A stretch of 64,000 nucleotides of DNA from Leptospirales bacterium (GTDB lineage: Bacteria > Spirochaetota > Leptospiria > Turneriellales > JAOUFE01). Location of the stretch: assembly GCA_040326155.1 (NCBI GenBank), contig JBEQLE010000013.1, positions 1 to 64,000 on the forward strand. The letters are read 5' to 3'. The notes under the pieces are model-generated. The model made no database searches and was not told the DNA's origin. It worked only from the letters and a program-made list of their open reading frames with translations. Below are positions 35,169-42,346 of this stretch, in pieces (position 1 is the first letter of the stretch; each line of letters begins with the position of its first letter). Both the position numbers and the translations under genes were made by a program.

Positions 35169-36188
35169 TTATTTTAATATTGGGAAAACCAATTTTTTCA
35201 CTTTCTTTTCAAAGAAATAATTGATCTCGTCTCTTCCGAGCCAGTACTTGGCATCGGTCTCAGCTAATTTTGAAATTTCCATCATCGGTAATTTATCGGT
35301 TCGATCAAGTTCAATCTGCCGTTTAAACTCTGATGTTGCCCCAGTGTTGGCGATTCTAACATAATGTTCGGTTTCCAACCGCTTTTCGTTGGCAAAAAAT
35401 TGCATCAACTCTTCCAGAGCTTTTGTCTGCACATTAAGAGATAACGACAACAAAGTTTTATTCCATAATAGCATCGAAGTTTGTCTTGGTTTAATAGCCG
35501 ACCACCCATCATTATAATCAATGTTCCCCACAGAAAGTATCGCCATTTTTTTAAACTTCTTCTTTGGTCCAACGCAATATTCAAGAGCTTCCTTGATTGC
35601 CATCATAGTGGGGTTATTCGCCCACAACGCTCCATCGACCAGATTATCTGAAACTCCCTTTATGGACACAATAGGAAGATAAGAAGGAGCCGCCGACGAA
35701 GCTAAAATGACATCAACCATTTTCAATTTACCATTGGGATTCTCAGCACCAGTATGACTGGTTCGAAAAACAAAACCACGAAATGTATTGAGATCGACAG
35801 CCGAAATTGCCATTCTAGTCTGGGCATCATCCATCAAGCCATCCCCTAGAAGCCATTCCAGACTCTTGCGAAGCTGTTTATTCGAATATTTTGATTTGAA
35901 AACAATCTGTTTAATTAATCGTAAGGCTCTGATTATAGAGTAATTTGATGGCAAAATCAACGGTCCGTGTTTTTCATAAAACTCAATCACTTTGTCTGAC
36001 GATATGCCTCTCGCAAGAGCGCCACCAATAATGGACCCGGTTGAAGTCCCCGTAATTAAATCAAAATAATCAGCAATAGGACCATACTTTTTTTCGAATT
36101 TCTGAAGTATAATAGAAGAGTAAAACCCTTTAATTCCACCACCATCAATTGATAAGATTTTAAAAGTATCTTTCGAGATCGATTTCAT
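35169..36188 (-). CDS. Patatin-like phospholipase (CapV-like subfamily)
   Basis: ILSIDGGGIKG, GTSTG nucleophile, ASSAAPSY and DGALWANNP. Confidence 0.9.
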   Translation of the reverse strand: MKSISKDTFKILSIDGGGIKGFYSSIILQKFEKKYGPIADYFDLITGTSTGSIIGGALARGISSDKVIEFYEKHGPLILPSNYSIIRALRLIKQIVFKSKYSNKQLRKSLEWLLGDGLMDDAQTRMAISAVDLNTFRGFVFRTSHTGAENPNGKLKMVDVILASSAAPSYLPIVSIKGVSDNLVDGALWANNPTMMAIKEALEYCVGPKKKFKKMAILSVGNIDYNDGWSAIKPRQTSMLLWNKTLLSLSLNVQTKALEELMQFFANEKRLETEHYVRIANTGATSEFKRQIELDRTDKLPMMEISKLAETDAKYWLGRDEINYFFEKKVKKLVFPILK

Positions 36189-36555: not shown

Positions 36556-36897
36556 ATGGGTAAAAGTGAAAAAAGAAAATATCCACGGGTAATGAAAGAC
36601 TTTCGAATTAATTATGCTATGCCTGGCTCATCGCATACCACTTCAAAAACATATGACATAAGCGCTTGCGGTCTTTCCTTTGAGAGTGAAAAGGTAATTA
36701 AAAATGACGCTGTAATTAAGTTGCATTTAAAAAGCAGTGCAACCGATACACACGAACTTATCGGTCTTTCTCTTATCGCAAAAATAGTGCGGCATGAAAA
36801 AAATGGCAAAGGTTATCGCATAGGGGCAGAGTTTATGTACGTTACCAAGAAAACCATGGACCTGCTTGAGGTTTACCTTTACCCCGAGTCGGAATAA
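36556..36897 (+). CDS. Stand-alone PilZ domain protein
   Basis: RxxxR (RKYPR), DxSxxG (DISACG) and YRIGAEF. Confidence 0.9.
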   Translation: MGKSEKRKYPRVMKDFRINYAMPGSSHTTSKTYDISACGLSFESEKVIKNDAVIKLHLKSSATDTHELIGLSLIAKIVRHEKNGKGYRIGAEFMYVTKKTMDLLEVYLYPESE

Positions 36898-36900
36898 CAG

Positions 36901-38256
36901 TTAATTAAGAACTCTACCAACAACCATTGTTATATCATCATACTGGATGTCTTGAAATTCAACAATTTCCGCCATTAAAGCTTCTATAATTTTGTCAGGC
37001 GCCAGTGTACCCAGTTTTTTAAAAGCGACTTCCAGCCTTTCTTGTCCATACATTTCATGGTCTTTTCGAAAAGCCTCGGTAACCCCATCCGTAAATGCAA
37101 GAATGGTATCACCTTTATTTAGTTTTATTGTGATATCGGGTAATCCGTGCTTTATGTCGTCGGTGAGCCCTATCCAGGTTCCCTCCGTTTCATATACGTC
37201 AACATCGCCGCTGCTTGCACGGTGTATCATAATGTCCTGGTGTTTTCCCGCGTACGTAATTTCCCTTTTCGTCATTTTCATTACGCAGATCGTCATATAG
37301 CGACTTACATTTAAACGCCGTATATTTTCTTTGATAATTTTATTCGCATCAGCGATAACATCAGAAGGCATAATCGCACTGTCTTCTTGTACCAAAGAAG
37401 CAATACTCGTCTGTGTCATCATCATAATAAGACCAGATTCAACTCCATGTCCCGAAACATCCCCGACCGTCATCCATAAGTGATCTTTGTCTGACTGTAT
37501 AATATCGTAATAATCGCCGCCAACTTCATCCGCTGGTATCATCTTCGCGGCAATTTCAAAATCTCCGACTGTGTTGTCTGCAGGTAACAAAGCCGTTTGA
37601 ATTTTCTTCGCAATTTCCATTTCACCCCAGAGAGCGTCTTTCGTTTTCTGAAGTTCGGCGCGAAGAAAAAATTCTTTAGAAATAAGGCTGTATTTTACAT
37701 AACCAATTGCGGTTACGATTACACCGGTGGAGGAAAGAAAGTAAAGGTTGTTAATCAGTAATTCAAGTTTAAAAGAGGCACCGGATAACGCATTCATTAA
37801 TACATATAAACTGATTGTAATAATTGCATTCGTCGCTGAGTGAACCGCCTTCCATGGCATCATAATATTTACAGCGATCATTACCAGGTTAAGACCTGCG
37901 TAATAACTTGCATCAAACCCGCCAACATCAACTGTCATTTGAACAATCATTAAACTGGCCAAAGCGGAAAGAAAATACCCGTGCCAAATACTAAATTTAC
38001 CGTATTTCGTAGATCGAATAGCGGCATACTGTAAAATCAAGATAACCGTTACTATAAGCCTGTAAGCCCAGAACTTATTAACAATATGTTCTGGAACTAT
38101 ATAATAATCTAAAAGTCCGAAAAGTGGAACAAGAGTAAAAGTCAATGGAACAAGAGTGCGCAACGCATCGTGAGTTATTTTGTGTATATAATCAACCAAC
38201 TCTGCAGGTTCTTTTTGCTTCTTAACTTTCTTTTTTTGATTTTTCATTTTATCCAT
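36901..38256 (-). CDS. Membrane sensor (PhcS-like ~6TM) fused to SpoIIE/RsbU PP2C phosphatase
   Basis: TM region with LDY..P, RLIV and YYAGLNL. PP2C motifs AKKIQTALLP, VGGDYYD, GDVSGHG, FTDGVTEA and DDIT. Confidence 0.88.
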   Translation of the reverse strand: MDKMKNQKKKVKKQKEPAELVDYIHKITHDALRTLVPLTFTLVPLFGLLDYYIVPEHIVNKFWAYRLIVTVILILQYAAIRSTKYGKFSIWHGYFLSALASLMIVQMTVDVGGFDASYYAGLNLVMIAVNIMMPWKAVHSATNAIITISLYVLMNALSGASFKLELLINNLYFLSSTGVIVTAIGYVKYSLISKEFFLRAELQKTKDALWGEMEIAKKIQTALLPADNTVGDFEIAAKMIPADEVGGDYYDIIQSDKDHLWMTVGDVSGHGVESGLIMMMTQTSIASLVQEDSAIMPSDVIADANKIIKENIRRLNVSRYMTICVMKMTKREITYAGKHQDIMIHRASSGDVDVYETEGTWIGLTDDIKHGLPDITIKLNKGDTILAFTDGVTEAFRKDHEMYGQERLEVAFKKLGTLAPDKIIEALMAEIVEFQDIQYDDITMVVGRVLN

Positions 38257-38309
38257 AATACATACCTACTATTGGCGTTCCCCATTAGACTCACGAATTT
38301 CTTCTAATA

Positions 38310-39722
38310 CTAAATTTTCTCTGGTTTTTTTACTGTTAAAAACATTTGACTTCTAGACTCTTCAAACTCGACCTTTGTATTCGCATTCGGAATTCTTTTA
38401 GCAACATTGATCATCTCTTCTTCTGTTCGGTAGATCAGTGTCCAATCGAGCCAGTATTCCATATACAACCTGGTTTCAGTTCCATCGTGGTAATTACCAA
38501 TCAACAGTTCACCGCCTGGTTTTAATAGATTATATAGTTTCTCTGTTACAGCCTGGGCGACTCGTACTGTTAAATAATCGTAAAGACCCATGGAGTAAAT
38601 ATAGTCGAATTGTCCCCACTCTTTCGAAAGGTCGGCTTTTTTAACCAGAGTTCGAACCGATTCCTGTCTGAACGTTTTATTTAGTTTTTTATTGAGACGC
38701 GACTCAATGGCCATAATACTTTCTGCCGCTTCCCCGAGTGCGCTTCTATCCTGATCAAGAAGTGTAAATTCCACTTTATCAATAATTTCCGGAGATTGTA
38801 TAATATTCTCCATTTCTTGAGCCGGACCACAAGCGACGGTCATTATACGAACTTTCTCTCCTGTCTTCTTCTTTCCTTTAGAACGTTGTTTTATGCACTT
38901 TAACACTTTTTCCGGAACCATAATTTTACGATTTCGAACTGCCTGAGCGGCTCCCGACATAATCGGATGTTTATGCATTAACTTTGCAAATATTGTTTTA
39001 CCCACATAAGCATCTTCATAGATCATGGTCATCATTTCCGAATCTCCGGCATAACCACGTGGTTTAACATTACTTCGCAAAGCAAACTCTGAAGTCTGAA
39101 TAAGATCCCACGCTTGTCGACGGAAAAAATAACCATGTAATTCATGTTCTTCCCGAGTAAAATCAGCAGTTTCTTCGGCCAGCCCTTTCAAGCGGTCATT
39201 GAAGAATTCAAAATATTTTGCACCTTCGGTTCGAATAACGGTGTCTTGTACTATAGCGTATATTTCAGGGGGTTCATCCGCATATTTAACATCAAACTCA
39301 TCAAAAAACTTTTTATACACTCTCAAGTCATATGTGAGAGCCGACACGTAATCTTTAAAAGAGTCTCGTATTTTACCTTTTTGAGCTTTAATAACCCGGA
39401 GGTTCTGGAAGTATGATTCGAGGTCAGCTGACCTGCGATATGCAAAAATATTATTAAAATCGTATACGTTATCGGTGAAGACGATTCGAGAAACAAAACC
39501 CGGTATCCCTTCTCCGCGAATTGGACTTAAATGGCATACGCCAAAACTTAATTCCTTATCTCCTGTATCAATAATTAATCCATCGTATTCTGCGTGCTCT
39601 TGAAAAACATCTTTATTCTCAAAATGGACAAGTAACGATGCACGTGTGCCATAAGCAACCTGAACGGTGGTTGTTTCTTCTCCGTTTAACAGTTTACCGT
39701 GATATATAAAATCTTCAACCAT
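38310..39722 (-). CDS. PhcB-like class I SAM-dependent methyltransferase
   Basis: KPRGYAGDSEM, AVRNR, VACGPAQE, FDYIYSMGLYDYL, GGELLIGN and MEYWLDWTLIYR, at 470 aa. Confidence 0.85.
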   Translation of the reverse strand: MVEDFIYHGKLLNGEETTTVQVAYGTRASLLVHFENKDVFQEHAEYDGLIIDTGDKELSFGVCHLSPIRGEGIPGFVSRIVFTDNVYDFNNIFAYRRSADLESYFQNLRVIKAQKGKIRDSFKDYVSALTYDLRVYKKFFDEFDVKYADEPPEIYAIVQDTVIRTEGAKYFEFFNDRLKGLAEETADFTREEHELHGYFFRRQAWDLIQTSEFALRSNVKPRGYAGDSEMMTMIYEDAYVGKTIFAKLMHKHPIMSGAAQAVRNRKIMVPEKVLKCIKQRSKGKKKTGEKVRIMTVACGPAQEMENIIQSPEIIDKVEFTLLDQDRSALGEAAESIMAIESRLNKKLNKTFRQESVRTLVKKADLSKEWGQFDYIYSMGLYDYLTVRVAQAVTEKLYNLLKPGGELLIGNYHDGTETRLYMEYWLDWTLIYRTEEEMINVAKRIPNANTKVEFEESRSQMFLTVKKPEKI

Positions 39723-39763
39723 TGGTCTTCCCCTTGTTCATGAAAGCAAACTAGTGCCTTCAT

Positions 39764-40132
39764 TTATACCCCGACAATATCAACTCTGTTATCTGATGTT
39801 TTAAAAAGATGGAGAGCTCCAAAACTTAATTCTTGCCATTTTAGAGAATCACTGTATTGCAATATACAACTACCAGTACCATTTTTTATTTTTTCAAGCA
39901 CCGATATTAAAGGTGTTATCGTAGATGAATTCATATAAGTCAATTCTTCAAAATTCATTATCACGGTCTTTGACTCATCAGAAAAGATGTCATTAAAAAC
40001 CGGTCCGAGAAATATTCCAGGGTTTATCTCGGTACTACGACCAAGCCATTTTACTGTTATTGTATTACCCTCCTCACTTACTTGTAAAGTAAGATCTTCA
40101 GCTTCGTTTTTATATTCAGGTTGTATTGCCAT
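39764..40132 (-). CDS. SiaC/STAS-like phospho-switch protein
   Basis: GRSTEINP..FLGP and F..LTYMNSST, which resembles the SiaC YFNTSS phosphosite loop. Confidence 0.7.
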   Translation of the reverse strand: MAIQPEYKNEAEDLTLQVSEEGNTITVKWLGRSTEINPGIFLGPVFNDIFSDESKTVIMNFEELTYMNSSTITPLISVLEKIKNGTGSCILQYSDSLKWQELSFGALHLFKTSDNRVDIVGV

Positions 40133-40144
40133 AATAGAAGTTCC

Positions 40145-40630
40145 TTATCTTTGATATACTGCTGACATTGCTAAAACATTATTTTCATCAACATAAAAAT
40201 CGAGTATTGAACTGCCTTCATAAGCAATTCGTGTTAACCCGAGACCACTCTCATTTTCTCCCAACTCTTTAGCACTGATCAGCTTTAGTCTTTCCACATA
40301 TGCTTCGAATGGGTTTTGATATCCTCGAATCCATTGAATAGTCTCATCGAGTTTTTTCAATTGAAGATCATCATTGCCGAGTATTTTATTTTTAACTTCA
40401 ACAATAACCGATCTACCTTCAATATCAACCGAGTAGTCAAATGTGTCGGTCATTTTTTGAGAGGCTTCATACTTAATTGCATTCTCAACCAATTCACTTG
40501 AAACCATGATTAAAGCATGAATATCATCAACAGAAAATTGATGCTCTGTTAAAAAATGTTCCAAACGTTCACGTACTTTGTTTAGTTCGTCCCATTCGGG
40601 TTTTAGTGTTAATTCCAGGGAATCTTCCAT
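40145..40630 (-). CDS. SiaB/anti-sigma-like GHKL Ser/Thr kinase
   Basis: SELVENAIKY N-box and ESGLGLTRIA G-box with a SiaB-like helical insert. ATG at 40630 has SD AGGAG. Confidence 0.8.
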   Translation of the reverse strand: MEDSLELTLKPEWDELNKVRERLEHFLTEHQFSVDDIHALIMVSSELVENAIKYEASQKMTDTFDYSVDIEGRSVIVEVKNKILGNDDLQLKKLDETIQWIRGYQNPFEAYVERLKLISAKELGENESGLGLTRIAYEGSSILDFYVDENNVLAMSAVYQR

Positions 40631-40697
40631 TAGAGAAACTCTCCTTGGCCTATCGATCTTTTTAAAATCATTGGAATGCAATTCATAATATACGGCC

Positions 40698-40726
40698 ATT
40701 TTATTAACAATGATGAGGTCAGTCAA
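40698..40726 (-). promoter_or_regulatory. sigma70 promoter of the kinase-SiaC-PhcB-sensor operon
   Basis: Minus strand TTGACT-17-TAAAAT, about 60 nt upstream of the SD and ATG at 40630. Confidence 0.65.
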
Positions 40727-41026
40727 CATCTTTTTCAAAATTATTATATAAGTCGTTATATTTATTCGATTTTATTTCTTATTTATAGTTTATCTCTTTT
40801 TAATTCCGTAAATCAAGCATTTGTCATACATTAGTTATAAAAATTTCAATAACATTTGAATATAAGTCCCATCTGAATCTTCCTTCGAGACAAATTACAA
40901 CCGGAAGCGGTGAATCAAGTTGTTTACTTTCGAGCAAATAGGAGCGTCGAAAAGACCTTTCAGATACAGGTTTGCTATGTACTTTTTACTAGACTGCCTG
41001 AAAAAGAGACAATATTCGGAGACTCT

Positions 41027-42346
41027 ATGATTCTCGTTATTTATACAAAGAAGTACAGAAAGGGTAGTTATCAATTTCAGTTAGCCGCAGAAACTCTTAT
41101 GCAGGAAAAGAGGGTCCATTTTCCTGAAGCCGAGATTGTTTGCTGTGGTATCGTTACGAAAAAAGAATTTAAAAATGTCTTTCGCAAATATAAAAAGATT
41201 AGTGAACTTCATTTTTTTGGCCACTCGGGAATGTACGGCCCCATGTTCAGCACGATCTCTTTTCCGGAACAAATGAGCCGAGCCGAATGGAGAGATCTTA
41301 AAATCGATTTTTCACCCGACGCAAGAGCATATTTTCTATGTTGCCGAAGCGCCAGGTGGTTTGCTCCCTTTTTTGCACATCATTACAGGGTTACTGCGTT
41401 TGGAGTCTACTGGTATACTACTGTAAGTTCTAACAAAACCCGTTTTAAATGGGCAATGGGAAGGAGAAAAAACGAAAAGCCTCTTTATATAGTAGGTTGT
41501 CCGGGAAAAAAATCGCACGGGATGATCGGGTCCCTGTTAAAATATTCAGGATTTGCAAAGGCCGAAAAACTTAAAGAATTTGCAGCCCGTCCTGCCGAAG
41601 AAGAATCGTACAATAAAGTTGCTGCCGTATATAATGAAGTATTTTCCGATATAAATGTTCGTCGAGATGAAATGAATTGGATACATTCTGTCTGGCCAAA
41701 AGGTTCGAACCTCTCTATTTTAGATGTTGGTTGTGGAAACGGGGCATTATTAAAGGAGCTTTCGGGAAAAATAAAACAGGGAATCGGCGTCGATAACTCT
41801 TCCACCATGATCAAATTTGCAAAACTGAATAACATTCACAATAAAAATATAAATTTTGAGCAAATTACCGAACCAAAGCTTAAATTCAAGGACAACTCGT
41901 TCGATTTGGTTATTTCACTGCTTTCCTTTCGATACCTGGACTGGGACCCTGTAATTCATGAAATTCTTCGTGTTTTAAAGGAGGGGGGGTCGATTATTAT
42001 AATCGATATGGTTGCTAAACCAGTGGCTTTTTCCGAGTATGCTCAATTTATTCTATCTAAAACTAAAACTATTCTTTATCAAATGAAAAATCGTCGCTTT
42101 TCAAACGCTTTACAAAAGATGGTTCACAGTAAAGAGTGGAGGCAAATGGTACAATACAACCCCATTCGAGATGAACACGAGATATTATGGTATTTAACCA
42201 GTCGGTTTCCCGATGTTACAATAAAAAAATTGAATATTGGCTGGAATGCAAGAACAATCGGGTTTTCTACTGGTCCTCTTAAAAAGCAAAAAGTGATAAA
42301 CCATATAAAGGTATTGCCAGAAATGACGCAGCAATCGCCGGAATAA
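41027..42346 (+). CDS. Two-domain protein: unknown N-terminal domain (His/Cys motifs) + class I SAM methyltransferase
   Basis: C-terminal ILDVGCGNG, GVDNS, FKDNSFDLVIS and RVLKEGG. N-terminal FFGHSG and FLCCRS. ATG at 41027 follows GGAG. Confidence 0.8.
   Translation: MILVIYTKKYRKGSYQFQLAAETLMQEKRVHFPEAEIVCCGIVTKKEFKNVFRKYKKISELHFFGHSGMYGPMFSTISFPEQMSRAEWRDLKIDFSPDARAYFLCCRSARWFAPFFAHHYRVTAFGVYWYTTVSSNKTRFKWAMGRRKNEKPLYIVGCPGKKSHGMIGSLLKYSGFAKAEKLKEFAARPAEEESYNKVAAVYNEVFSDINVRRDEMNWIHSVWPKGSNLSILDVGCGNGALLKELSGKIKQGIGVDNSSTMIKFAKLNNIHNKNINFEQITEPKLKFKDNSFDLVISLLSFRYLDWDPVIHEILRVLKEGGSIIIIDMVAKPVAFSEYAQFILSKTKTILYQMKNRRFSNALQKMVHSKEWRQMVQYNPIRDEHEILWYLTSRFPDVTIKKLNIGWNARTIGFSTGPLKKQKVINHIKVLPEMTQQSPE

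Follow-up and report, generated by a model that had tools for sequence, protein, structure and literature searches.

A conserved four-gene cassette in a Leptospirales bacterium and other lineages places a PhcB-family methyltransferase and a PhcS-like membrane phosphatase beside a putative partner switch

How might a bacterium outside the plant-associated Betaproteobacteria combine the enzyme and the membrane receptor of Phc-type quorum sensing with a partner switch in place of a histidine kinase? The question is raised by four co-oriented minus-strand open reading frames (ORFs) at positions 36901-40630 of a 64,000-nucleotide stretch of Leptospirales bacterium DNA (contig JBEQLE010000013.1 of assembly GCA_040326155.1; hereafter the window). 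They encode a GHKL-like protein, a small SiaC/STAS-like protein, a methyltransferase related to the PhcB group and a membrane protein in which a six-transmembrane (6TM) domain is joined to a PP2C phosphatase. An earlier note on this DNA, made from the sequence alone, had read them as a hybrid quorum-sensing system with a PhcB-like synthase, a PhcS-like receptor and SiaABC-type wiring. We found that the four genes stay together in many phyla, that the enzyme and the 6TM domain are homologous to their Phc counterparts, and that the 6TM domain is shuffled among many output modules. The cassette is apparently a widespread, undescribed signalling unit. We give even chances to the view that it is a partner switch gating a PhcB-family signal synthase in a feedback loop that senses the synthase's own product. 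The features of the locus are as follows.

40145 to 40630, minus strand: GHKL-like 'kinase' protein, 161 amino acids (aa), starting at the ATG at 40630
39764 to 40132, minus strand: SiaC/STAS-like phosphoprotein, 122 aa, from sub-cut-off STAS and SiaC matches
38310 to 39722, minus strand: PhcB-family S-adenosylmethionine-dependent methyltransferase, 470 aa, from Methyltransf_12, Methyltransf_31 and Methyltransf_25 matches and hhalign to the PhcB group
39423 to 39722, minus strand: N-terminal PilZ-fold beta-barrel of the methyltransferase, residues 1-100, from the predicted structure
36901 to 38256, minus strand: 6TM-PP2C membrane phosphatase, 451 aa, from hydrophobic segments and a SpoIIE domain
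37582 to 38256, minus strand: 6TM sensor domain of the phosphatase, residues 1-225, PhcS/MASE8-like, from hydrophobicity and homology
36901 to 37581, minus strand: PP2C (SpoIIE-type) domain of the phosphatase, residues 226-451, from the SpoIIE match
40698 to 40726, minus strand: promoter-like site TTGACT-17 nt-TAAAAT upstream of the first gene, 10/12 matches

The conservation of the cassette in other genomes, on which the earlier note had staked its proposal, was found on a wide scale. One genome per species was scanned with the methyltransferase, yielding 277 loci, and the best 80 of the 277 were fetched; 67 of the 80 could be judged, their flanks extending for 1 kb or more upstream and 1.5 kb or more downstream. 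In 60 of these 67 loci, the genes for the kinase-like protein, the STAS-like protein, the methyltransferase and the phosphatase follow one another in this order on the same strand, with reading frames that overlap or nearly abut. A strict positional rule is passed by 57 of the 67, and L031, L045 and L058 were added after over-long ORF calls had been corrected. By record title, the cassette loci belong to at least seven phyla (Spirochaetota, Desulfobacterota, Myxococcota, Fidelibacterota, Calditrichota, Pseudomonadota, Bacteroidota and Nitrospirales), and one cultured species, Leptospira weilii, is named among them. Within the Spirochaetota, the methyltransferase gene is patchy, occurring in 23 of the 301 genomes sampled and in 11 of 126 genera. 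Clustering of the flanking ORFs placed no other gene family near the cassette in more than 8 of about 80 loci, and thus no fixed sigma factor, cyclase or transcription factor goes with it. Among the papers listed, none combined PhcB with a partner switch, in agreement with the description of this architecture as new, and none combined PhcB with the taxa concerned; nor was any paper found that speaks of PhcB-like or PhcS-like proteins or of PhcB homologues, in a literature search that was thin on subscription journals.

PhcB makes the lipid quorum signal of the wilt bacterium Ralstonia, and its expression suffices for methyl ester production. The window enzyme was compared with the PhcB group through a stand-in, an operon on a Paraburkholderia graminis plasmid that encodes a methyltransferase of 468 aa, a histidine kinase of 445 aa and response regulators of 134 and 344 aa. 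The stand-in can be regarded as a PhcB-group operon because its methyltransferase is 68% identical to Cupriavidus proteins, because relatives of that protein are named 'Regulatory protein' or carry a KEGG-derived PhcB (3-OH-palmitate methyl ester biosynthesis) description, and because R22 of the methyltransferase and the kinase H-box near residue 230 fit the published statements on PhcB R22C and on PhcB homologues in Ralstonia, Cupriavidus and Paraburkholderia (PMC6989110) and on PhcS His230 (PMC11960443). The similarity of the window methyltransferase to this protein is significant and collinear, with 29% identity over 252 aa in BLASTP (E 5e-39), an hhalign match of 99.9% for the family profile (E 9.4e-37; 279 columns, 179-459 on 178-458) and an hmmsearch E of 8e-54; the proposed homology thus stands for the PhcB group. 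Among the candidates scored, 1683 relatives were found at E up to 0.001, and many homologues bear the Joint Genome Institute name '3-hydroxypalmitic acid methyl ester biosynthesis protein'. In the plasmid library, the methyltransferase query gave, besides the Paraburkholderia operon, only C-terminal matches to short methyltransferases. One of the plasmid matches, in Pseudanabaena, was set aside; it is a shorter, 280-aa methyltransferase gene directly downstream of a Tn3 transposase gene and a recombinase gene.

The enzyme is a class I methyltransferase, matching Methyltransf_12 and Methyltransf_31 at their cut-offs and also Methyltransf_25. Its AlphaFold2 model (predicted local distance difference test, pLDDT, 92.6) comprises an N-terminal beta-barrel (residues 6-82), a long helical region (101-282) and a Rossmann domain (291-465). 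In Foldseek, the best neighbours of the whole model were small-molecule and polyketide methyltransferases, for example SibL, AprA MT2, 3ocj and CurJ C-MT. The barrel modelled alone (pLDDT 86.6) was matched best by the PilZ domain of YcgR in VIA-align (Z 8.2; root-mean-square deviation 3.8; 102 aligned), and PilZ-domain proteins filled 13 of the 14 top rows. None of 39 methyltransferase family members matches Pfam PilZ, no consistent sequence family was obtained for the N-terminus, and no RxxxR stretch, part of the c-di-GMP-binding motifs of PilZ domains, was seen before the barrel in the window protein. A CheR-domain match was weak (E 6e-4, below the cut-off). The sequence search of solved structures returned only a 49-residue stretch of a lysine methyltransferase at E 0.002, which we do not take to indicate protein methylation.

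The fourth gene of the cassette encodes, as proposed, a fusion of a sensor with about six transmembrane segments to a PP2C phosphatase. About six hydrophobic segments lie in residues 31-188, and the SpoIIE/PP2C domain covers residues 257-449 (E 5.4e-34). In 56 sequences, the invariant PP2C residues include D248, D251, D266, G269-H270-G271, D341 and D390-G391, with D440 and D441 nearly invariant. F46, L49, D50, Y118, Y119, G121, Y151, N170 and F173 are invariant in the 6TM domain; D50, Y118, Y119, N170 and others are polar or aromatic residues inside its hydrophobic segments. The likeness to the PhcS receptor was borne out by homology of the 6TM domain to the sensor domain of the kinase adjoining the Paraburkholderia PhcB-group gene (BLASTP 30% over 116 aa, E 1e-5; hhalign 97.2%, E 3.1e-11, 182 columns; hmmsearch 2.4e-13 and 2.1e-18). 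Furthermore, the window phosphatase shares 31% identity over 205 residues with the N-terminus of one gammaproteobacterial hybrid kinase (E 3e-14), an alignment in which the PP2C domain is not involved. A Pfam search that included MASE8 (PF20968) gave no match to the window 6TM domain; 1 of 21 family members matches MASE8 at E 0.079, and the PhcS-group kinase matches it at E 0.0012, below the cut-off. Further hints of MASE8 come from the precomputed PF20968.4 label on fusion proteins and from Atlas look-alikes, some of which are MASE8. In addition, 4 of the 21 members match PF16214, the N-terminal membrane region of class III adenylyl cyclases, below threshold (best E 1.7e-5). The 6TM anchors of class III cyclases have been proposed as lipid receptors.

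The 6TM domain, fused to histidine kinase, HD-GYP, GGDEF-EAL, cyclase and CheA-like modules, accompanies the methyltransferase family widely, which is new here. In a sample of the class Gammaproteobacteria, 65 of 401 genomes contained a match to the methyltransferase with an E no higher than 1e-10. In most of the 40 loci fetched from these 65, the encoded protein is a sister enzyme with an N-terminal cyclic-nucleotide (cNMP)-binding domain. A 6TM-domain protein adjoins the methyltransferase in 31 of the 40 loci. Twenty of these neighbours are hybrid histidine kinases, 10 are HD-GYP or PAS-HD-GYP proteins and one is a kinase of another kind. Of the nine loci without such a neighbour, four have a 7TMR-DISM kinase instead and two lie on short contigs; none of the 40 shows the arrangement methyltransferase-kinase-regulator-regulator. 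At L123 and L153-L155, a methyltransferase branch of about 570 aa directly follows 7TMR-DISM kinase-receiver-HD-GYP proteins of about 1080 aa, a pairing of the same enzyme family with another sensor type. Within the cassette set, 33 of the 67 loci hold a further 6TM receptor with another output, for example PAS-GGDEF-EAL, PAS-kinase or GAF-PAS-kinase. The closest relative of the window carries a 6TM adenylate/guanylate cyclase gene between the methyltransferase and phosphatase genes (L003:8424-9782, plus strand), which is absent from the window.

In the window genome, the 6TM domain has just one other carrier, a protein of 668 aa that also contains Hpt and HATPase domains and whose gene precedes those for CheY-like and CheX proteins (G000:C170:2576-5423, L157; E 3e-62). 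This CheA-like protein might likewise read the signal and pass it to a chemotaxis-like output. Two metagenome proteins of 958-959 aa (P0244 and P0245) join a 6TM sensor, an adenylate/guanylate cyclase, a cNMP-binding domain and a PhcB-family methyltransferase in one chain, and the window 6TM domain matches such a fusion at 99.5% (E 5e-23). These proteins would connect sensor and enzyme by a second route, within a single polypeptide. The 6TM domain also occurs in a rhizobial GGDEF-EAL protein whose gene adjoins that of a short homologue of the enzyme (hmmsearch E 2.5e-8). With the 6TM domain as query, the plasmid search gave no match.

Between the enzyme and the phosphatase stand, in the proposed switch, the two small proteins of the cassette. 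The 122-aa protein is a distant SiaC/STAS relative, as had been suggested; it matches STAS at E 0.0033 and SiaC (PF09345) at E 0.0039 (17.3 bits, cut-off 24.5), and its family profile retrieves the anti-sigma antagonist TM1442 at E 2.1e-5. The NSST motif of the family aligns to the DSA/DSS position of TM1442 and SpoIIAA, and Ser69 and Ser70, invariant in 56 sequences, fall at the phospho-site position. The protein also aligns with the genome's own SiaC (hhalign 90.6%, E 1.3e-6) with the NSST motifs in register. Membership of SiaABC itself is not supported. No cassette protein reaches the curated SiaA or SiaC cut-offs; for SiaA (NF038263), the phosphatase scores 59.7 bits against 700, and the match is limited to its PP2C part. 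Elsewhere in the genome, a true SiaA-like PP2C, a DUF6272 (SiaB-type) protein and SiaC (PF09345, E 4e-41) are encoded in a row (G000:C11:276-2477, L161). Two paralogues of the small protein stand alone at G000:C83:25490-25858 and G000:C55:30523-30909 (E 6e-34 and 4e-31 to the family profile), with no kinase-like or phosphatase gene anywhere near them.

The first gene had been taken to encode a GHKL kinase. The protein has a weak HATPase_c_2 match (E 1.6e-4; 22.1 bits, Pfam cut-off 27.4), and the family consensus conserves an N-box, ExxENAxKYG, and an SGLG motif; the G1 box is not kept. The profile of 56 family sequences aligns over residues 1-80, including the N-box, with the anti-sigma F factor SpoIIAB at E ~0.05. 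No match to the SiaB family DUF6272 (PF19788) was obtained at E up to 0.01. Among Atlas look-alikes of the protein, HATPase_c_2 or DUF6272 is found on a third to a half of the members (DUF6272 on about a third), which we take as a lead only. In NCBIfam, the kinase-like protein matches the slr1658 superfamily at E 8.9e-10 with 38.3 bits against a cut-off of 100; because the best NCBIfam matches, those to the slr1658 and slr1659 superfamilies (NF047703 and NF047705; 38.3 and 29.2 bits), both stay below the curated cut-offs of 100, the cassette proteins are distant relatives of these at most. For Synechocystis slr1658/slr1659, the papers found describe a mutant phenotype and contain no operon anatomy.

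What, then, would the switch act on? The kinase-like protein is predicted to bind the methyltransferase. A complex of the methyltransferase, as the scored partner, with the kinase-like and the small protein received a score of 0.79 (runs 0.77, 0.79 and 0.81), compared with 0.00 for the best of three controls. In the calibration of the tool, made on other inputs than three chains with our own alignments, 116 of 157 solved complexes came up to its mark, as did 2 of 215 mismatched pairs. The runs agree in at least 78% of contacts, with a partner pLDDT of at least 84. The predicted contacts lie almost wholly between residues 71-160 of the kinase-like protein and residues 106-114, 190-198, 220-224, 355-363, 384-392 and 422-439 of the methyltransferase, and motif residues that never vary take part in them on either side. 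When another chain took the place of the kinase-like one, the score was lost. The interface columns are more conserved than random sets in the methyltransferase (0.77 vs 0.59; 2 of 10,000) and in the kinase-like protein (0.70 vs 0.58; 169 of 10,000).

Variant loci bear on the same point. At L133 and L134, genes for the methyltransferase and the kinase-like protein lie beside that of a 6TM hybrid kinase, without STAS or PP2C genes. In a Deltaproteobacteria metagenome-assembled genome, one ORF (L077:6662-8056, plus strand) consists of the first ~121 residues of the kinase-like protein followed by methyltransferase residues ~117-469; this locus has no small-protein gene and may represent a real fusion, a deletion or an assembly fault. 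Because of the complex prediction, the lack of any other conserved partner gene, these three variants and the sensor-cyclase-cNMP-enzyme fusions, the methyltransferase itself is the likely output of the switch. The overall wiring put forward by the earlier note is kept in its homologies and its conservation; it is not kept at the Sia thresholds, and an output on the methyltransferase had not been foreseen.

Considering these results, we propose the following scenario for the cassette. The methyltransferase, by its homology, would be the synthase of a hydrophobic methyl-ester signal. The GHKL-like protein may bind the catalytic face of the enzyme and control it, and inhibition is the favoured sign of this control, as an anti-sigma factor holds a sigma factor. 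The unphosphorylated SiaC/STAS-like protein would compete for the GHKL-like protein and free the enzyme, and phosphorylation of the small protein at the Ser69/Ser70/Thr71 patch, by the GHKL-like protein or by another kinase, would reset the switch. The membrane PP2C may dephosphorylate the small protein when its 6TM domain detects a ligand in the membrane. Such a phospho-cycle is plausible because Ser69 and Ser70 of the small protein never vary and the PP2C domain likewise keeps its metal-binding Asp/Gly motifs throughout. The 6TM ligand is most likely the methyltransferase's own product, and the cassette would thus close a feedback loop on signal synthesis. Behaviour would be driven by other 6TM receptors, here the CheA-like kinase with CheY and CheX, and in relatives histidine kinases, GGDEF-EAL or HD-GYP proteins or cyclases. 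A wider claim can be made only tentatively, and we think it somewhat doubtful as a whole: that Phc-type lipid signalling is not confined to the Burkholderiales but arose long ago and spans many phyla, pairing a PhcB-family synthase with a MASE8-like 6TM receptor whose transmitters are interchangeable, and in which, at this locus, the GHKL protein sequesters the synthase and the receptor phosphatase switches the synthesis of its own signal through the SiaC/STAS-like phosphoprotein.

Several observations weigh against this scenario. The comparison with PhcB and PhcS was made with the Paraburkholderia operon and not with the characterised Ralstonia proteins, and the identity to the PhcB group is just 27-29% and confined to residues ~179-459; in BLASTP and hhalign, no alignment begins before residue 178-191, so that the N-terminal 178 residues have no detectable similarity to the PhcB-group protein, even though the two proteins agree in total length and register. 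In the kinase-like protein, only the N-terminal half aligns with SpoIIAB, and the G1 box DxGxG is absent from the family consensus, with NPV in its place. Because its profile has no significant similarity to the RsbW-like protein of the window or to the DUF6272 (SiaB-type) protein of the genome (hhalign probability 1.7%), the protein may not phosphorylate anything. The complex was predicted from three chains and our own alignments, outside the calibration of the tool, and the interface on the methyltransferase may be conserved just because it lies close to the active site. Seven of the 67 judgeable loci are off pattern, among them L070 with the methyltransferase alone and L005 with three small-protein paralogues and no phosphatase; the small protein is displaced at L064 and L069, the phosphatase is in pieces at L068, L081 meets a contig end, and L077 has the joined ORF described above. 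Promoter-like sites number 23 in 4.6 kb, compared with 16.1 +/- 3.9 in shuffled sequences. Finally, the co-location of a synthase and a sensor fits equally well a sensor that regulates the enzyme in response to another membrane cue.

This last point leads to the reading that competes most closely, namely that the 6TM domain senses a different membrane or envelope cue, such as the state of the lipids or a lipid from the host or environment, and switches a methyltransferase whose product is a metabolic or envelope modification rather than a self-made signal. All the routes found do run from sensor to enzyme, both in the partner switch with its predicted complex and in the sensor-cyclase-cNMP-methyltransferase fusion; the N-terminal cNMP-binding domain of the sister clade likewise marks regulated enzymes, and the identity of product and 6TM ligand is something we only infer. 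However, PhcS is reported to sense the PhcB product in the only relatives studied, and the clustering of several 6TM receptors beside the enzyme at 33 of 67 loci fits one signal with several readers better. We regard sensing of another cue as rather unlikely on balance. The architecture of PP2C, STAS-like and GHKL-like proteins is also that of RsbU/V/W and SpoIIE/AA/AB, and the cassette could accordingly be a classical partner switch with a remote target, in which the kinase-like protein sequesters a sigma factor or regulator and the methyltransferase is an accessory of the CheR-like adaptation type or independent. The sub-cut-off CheR match, the two further small-protein paralogues elsewhere in the genome and a predicted interface over the catalytic face, which would also suit a protein substrate, fit such an arrangement. 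Yet no sigma factor or regulator is conserved beside the cassette in about 80 loci, the sequence relatives of the methyltransferase are PhcB-group proteins and its structural neighbours small-molecule enzymes, and loci that lack STAS and PP2C still pair the kinase-like protein with the methyltransferase; a remote target is thus improbable. A promoter-like match that does not exceed background would agree with four genes that merely happen to be neighbours, or with an error of annotation, but 60 of 67 loci of many phyla show the same order and strand with overlapping or near-abutting frames, which excludes a chance juxtaposition, and we accord this explanation practically no weight.

The partner switch on a signal synthase is thus to be compared with the systems that it resembles. 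Its enzyme is homologous to that of the Phc system over the helical-plus-catalytic region and similar in total length (470 aa here, 468 aa in Paraburkholderia), the 6TM sensor domain is homologous to that of the kinase, and in both cases a synthase and a membrane sensor share one operon. The Phc system, compared through the Paraburkholderia plasmid operon, differs in using a histidine kinase and response regulators where the cassette has a PP2C, a SiaC/STAS-like substrate and a GHKL-like protein, in the N-terminal 178 residues of the enzyme, which have no detectable similarity, and in the phyla concerned. HisKA and receiver domains, both present in the Paraburkholderia operon, were not found in the window cassette. 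Because it has no histidine kinase or response regulators, the cassette is not a Phc system. The idea that the signal transduction proteins may feed back on PhcB activity has been raised in the discussion of PMC6989110.

SiaABCD of Pseudomonas aeruginosa consists of the PP2C SiaA, the kinase SiaB, the phosphoprotein SiaC and the diguanylate cyclase SiaD. The cassette resembles it in having a membrane PP2C, a small kinase-like protein and a small phosphoprotein, and in the expectation, judging from PMC8457831 and PMC7647112, that the unphosphorylated phosphoprotein acts by binding on an enzyme and not on a sigma factor. It differs in that no GGDEF gene is present in the window cassette or conserved across loci, and in that the enzyme is predicted here to be bound by the kinase-like protein and not by the phosphoprotein. 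RsbU/RsbV/RsbW and SpoIIE/SpoIIAA/SpoIIAB share with the cassette a phosphatase, a STAS-type antagonist and a GHKL holder, and the N-box and the phospho-serine position align; the held target is a sigma factor in those systems and, by prediction, a methyltransferase here, where the G1 box and a linked sigma factor gene are lacking. BgrSTUWV-BgrR of Sinorhizobium meliloti is alike in that, as published, the phosphatase BgrU, the kinase BgrW and the STAS protein BgrV control an enzyme, the cyclase BgrR, with bgrS and bgrT as extra genes. The bgr operon was rejected as a homologue; the rhizobial methyltransferase matches adjoin GGDEF-EAL or EAL genes or unannotated DNA, with no kinase-like, STAS or PP2C neighbours.

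At the locus itself, the intergenic gaps are 12, 41 and 53 nt. The tight spacing of four minus-strand genes described by the earlier note is thus correct, and the near-consensus promoter placed before them is plausible but not statistically special in view of the number of such sites in shuffled sequences. The upper coordinate given there, 40726, is the -35 hexamer of the promoter-like site. The first ORF as listed, 40145-40738 with a TTG start at 40738, is over-extended; the ATG at 40630 is the probable true start because AAGGAG lies just before it and the resulting 161 aa equal the length of the orthologues. A terminator scan found no terminator-like site within or after the four genes. A stand-alone PilZ-domain protein (36556-36897, plus strand; E 6e-10) is encoded convergently with the phosphatase, the stop codons lying 3 nt apart, in a position kept only in the closest relative. 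Beyond it, a patatin-like phospholipase gene (35169-36188, minus strand) matches NF041079 (CBASS cGAMP-activated phospholipase) with 246 bits against a cut-off of 200; no cyclase gene is evident beside it, and the same gene lies 3' of the cassette in the closest relative (L003). Divergent from the cassette, a gene at 40910-42346 (plus strand) encodes a 478-aa protein with a C-terminal Methyltransf_11 domain and an N-terminus of about 230 residues without a domain match; it is not conserved beside the cassette in other loci.

If the proposed scenario is true, the quorum-sensing chemistry known from one group of plant-associated Betaproteobacteria would extend to many other lineages, including spirochaetes with one Leptospira species, sulfate reducers, myxobacteria and several candidate phyla. 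The 6TM domain would be a membrane receptor for hydrophobic signals, one that can be coupled to kinases, phosphatases, cyclases and cyclic diguanylate enzymes alike. The scenario makes testable predictions, namely a two-protein complex, a phospho-site, a set of conserved intramembrane residues and a methylated small molecule. Furthermore, the cassette would be the first partner switch whose held target is a signal synthase, and would represent a new way to wire autoinduction.

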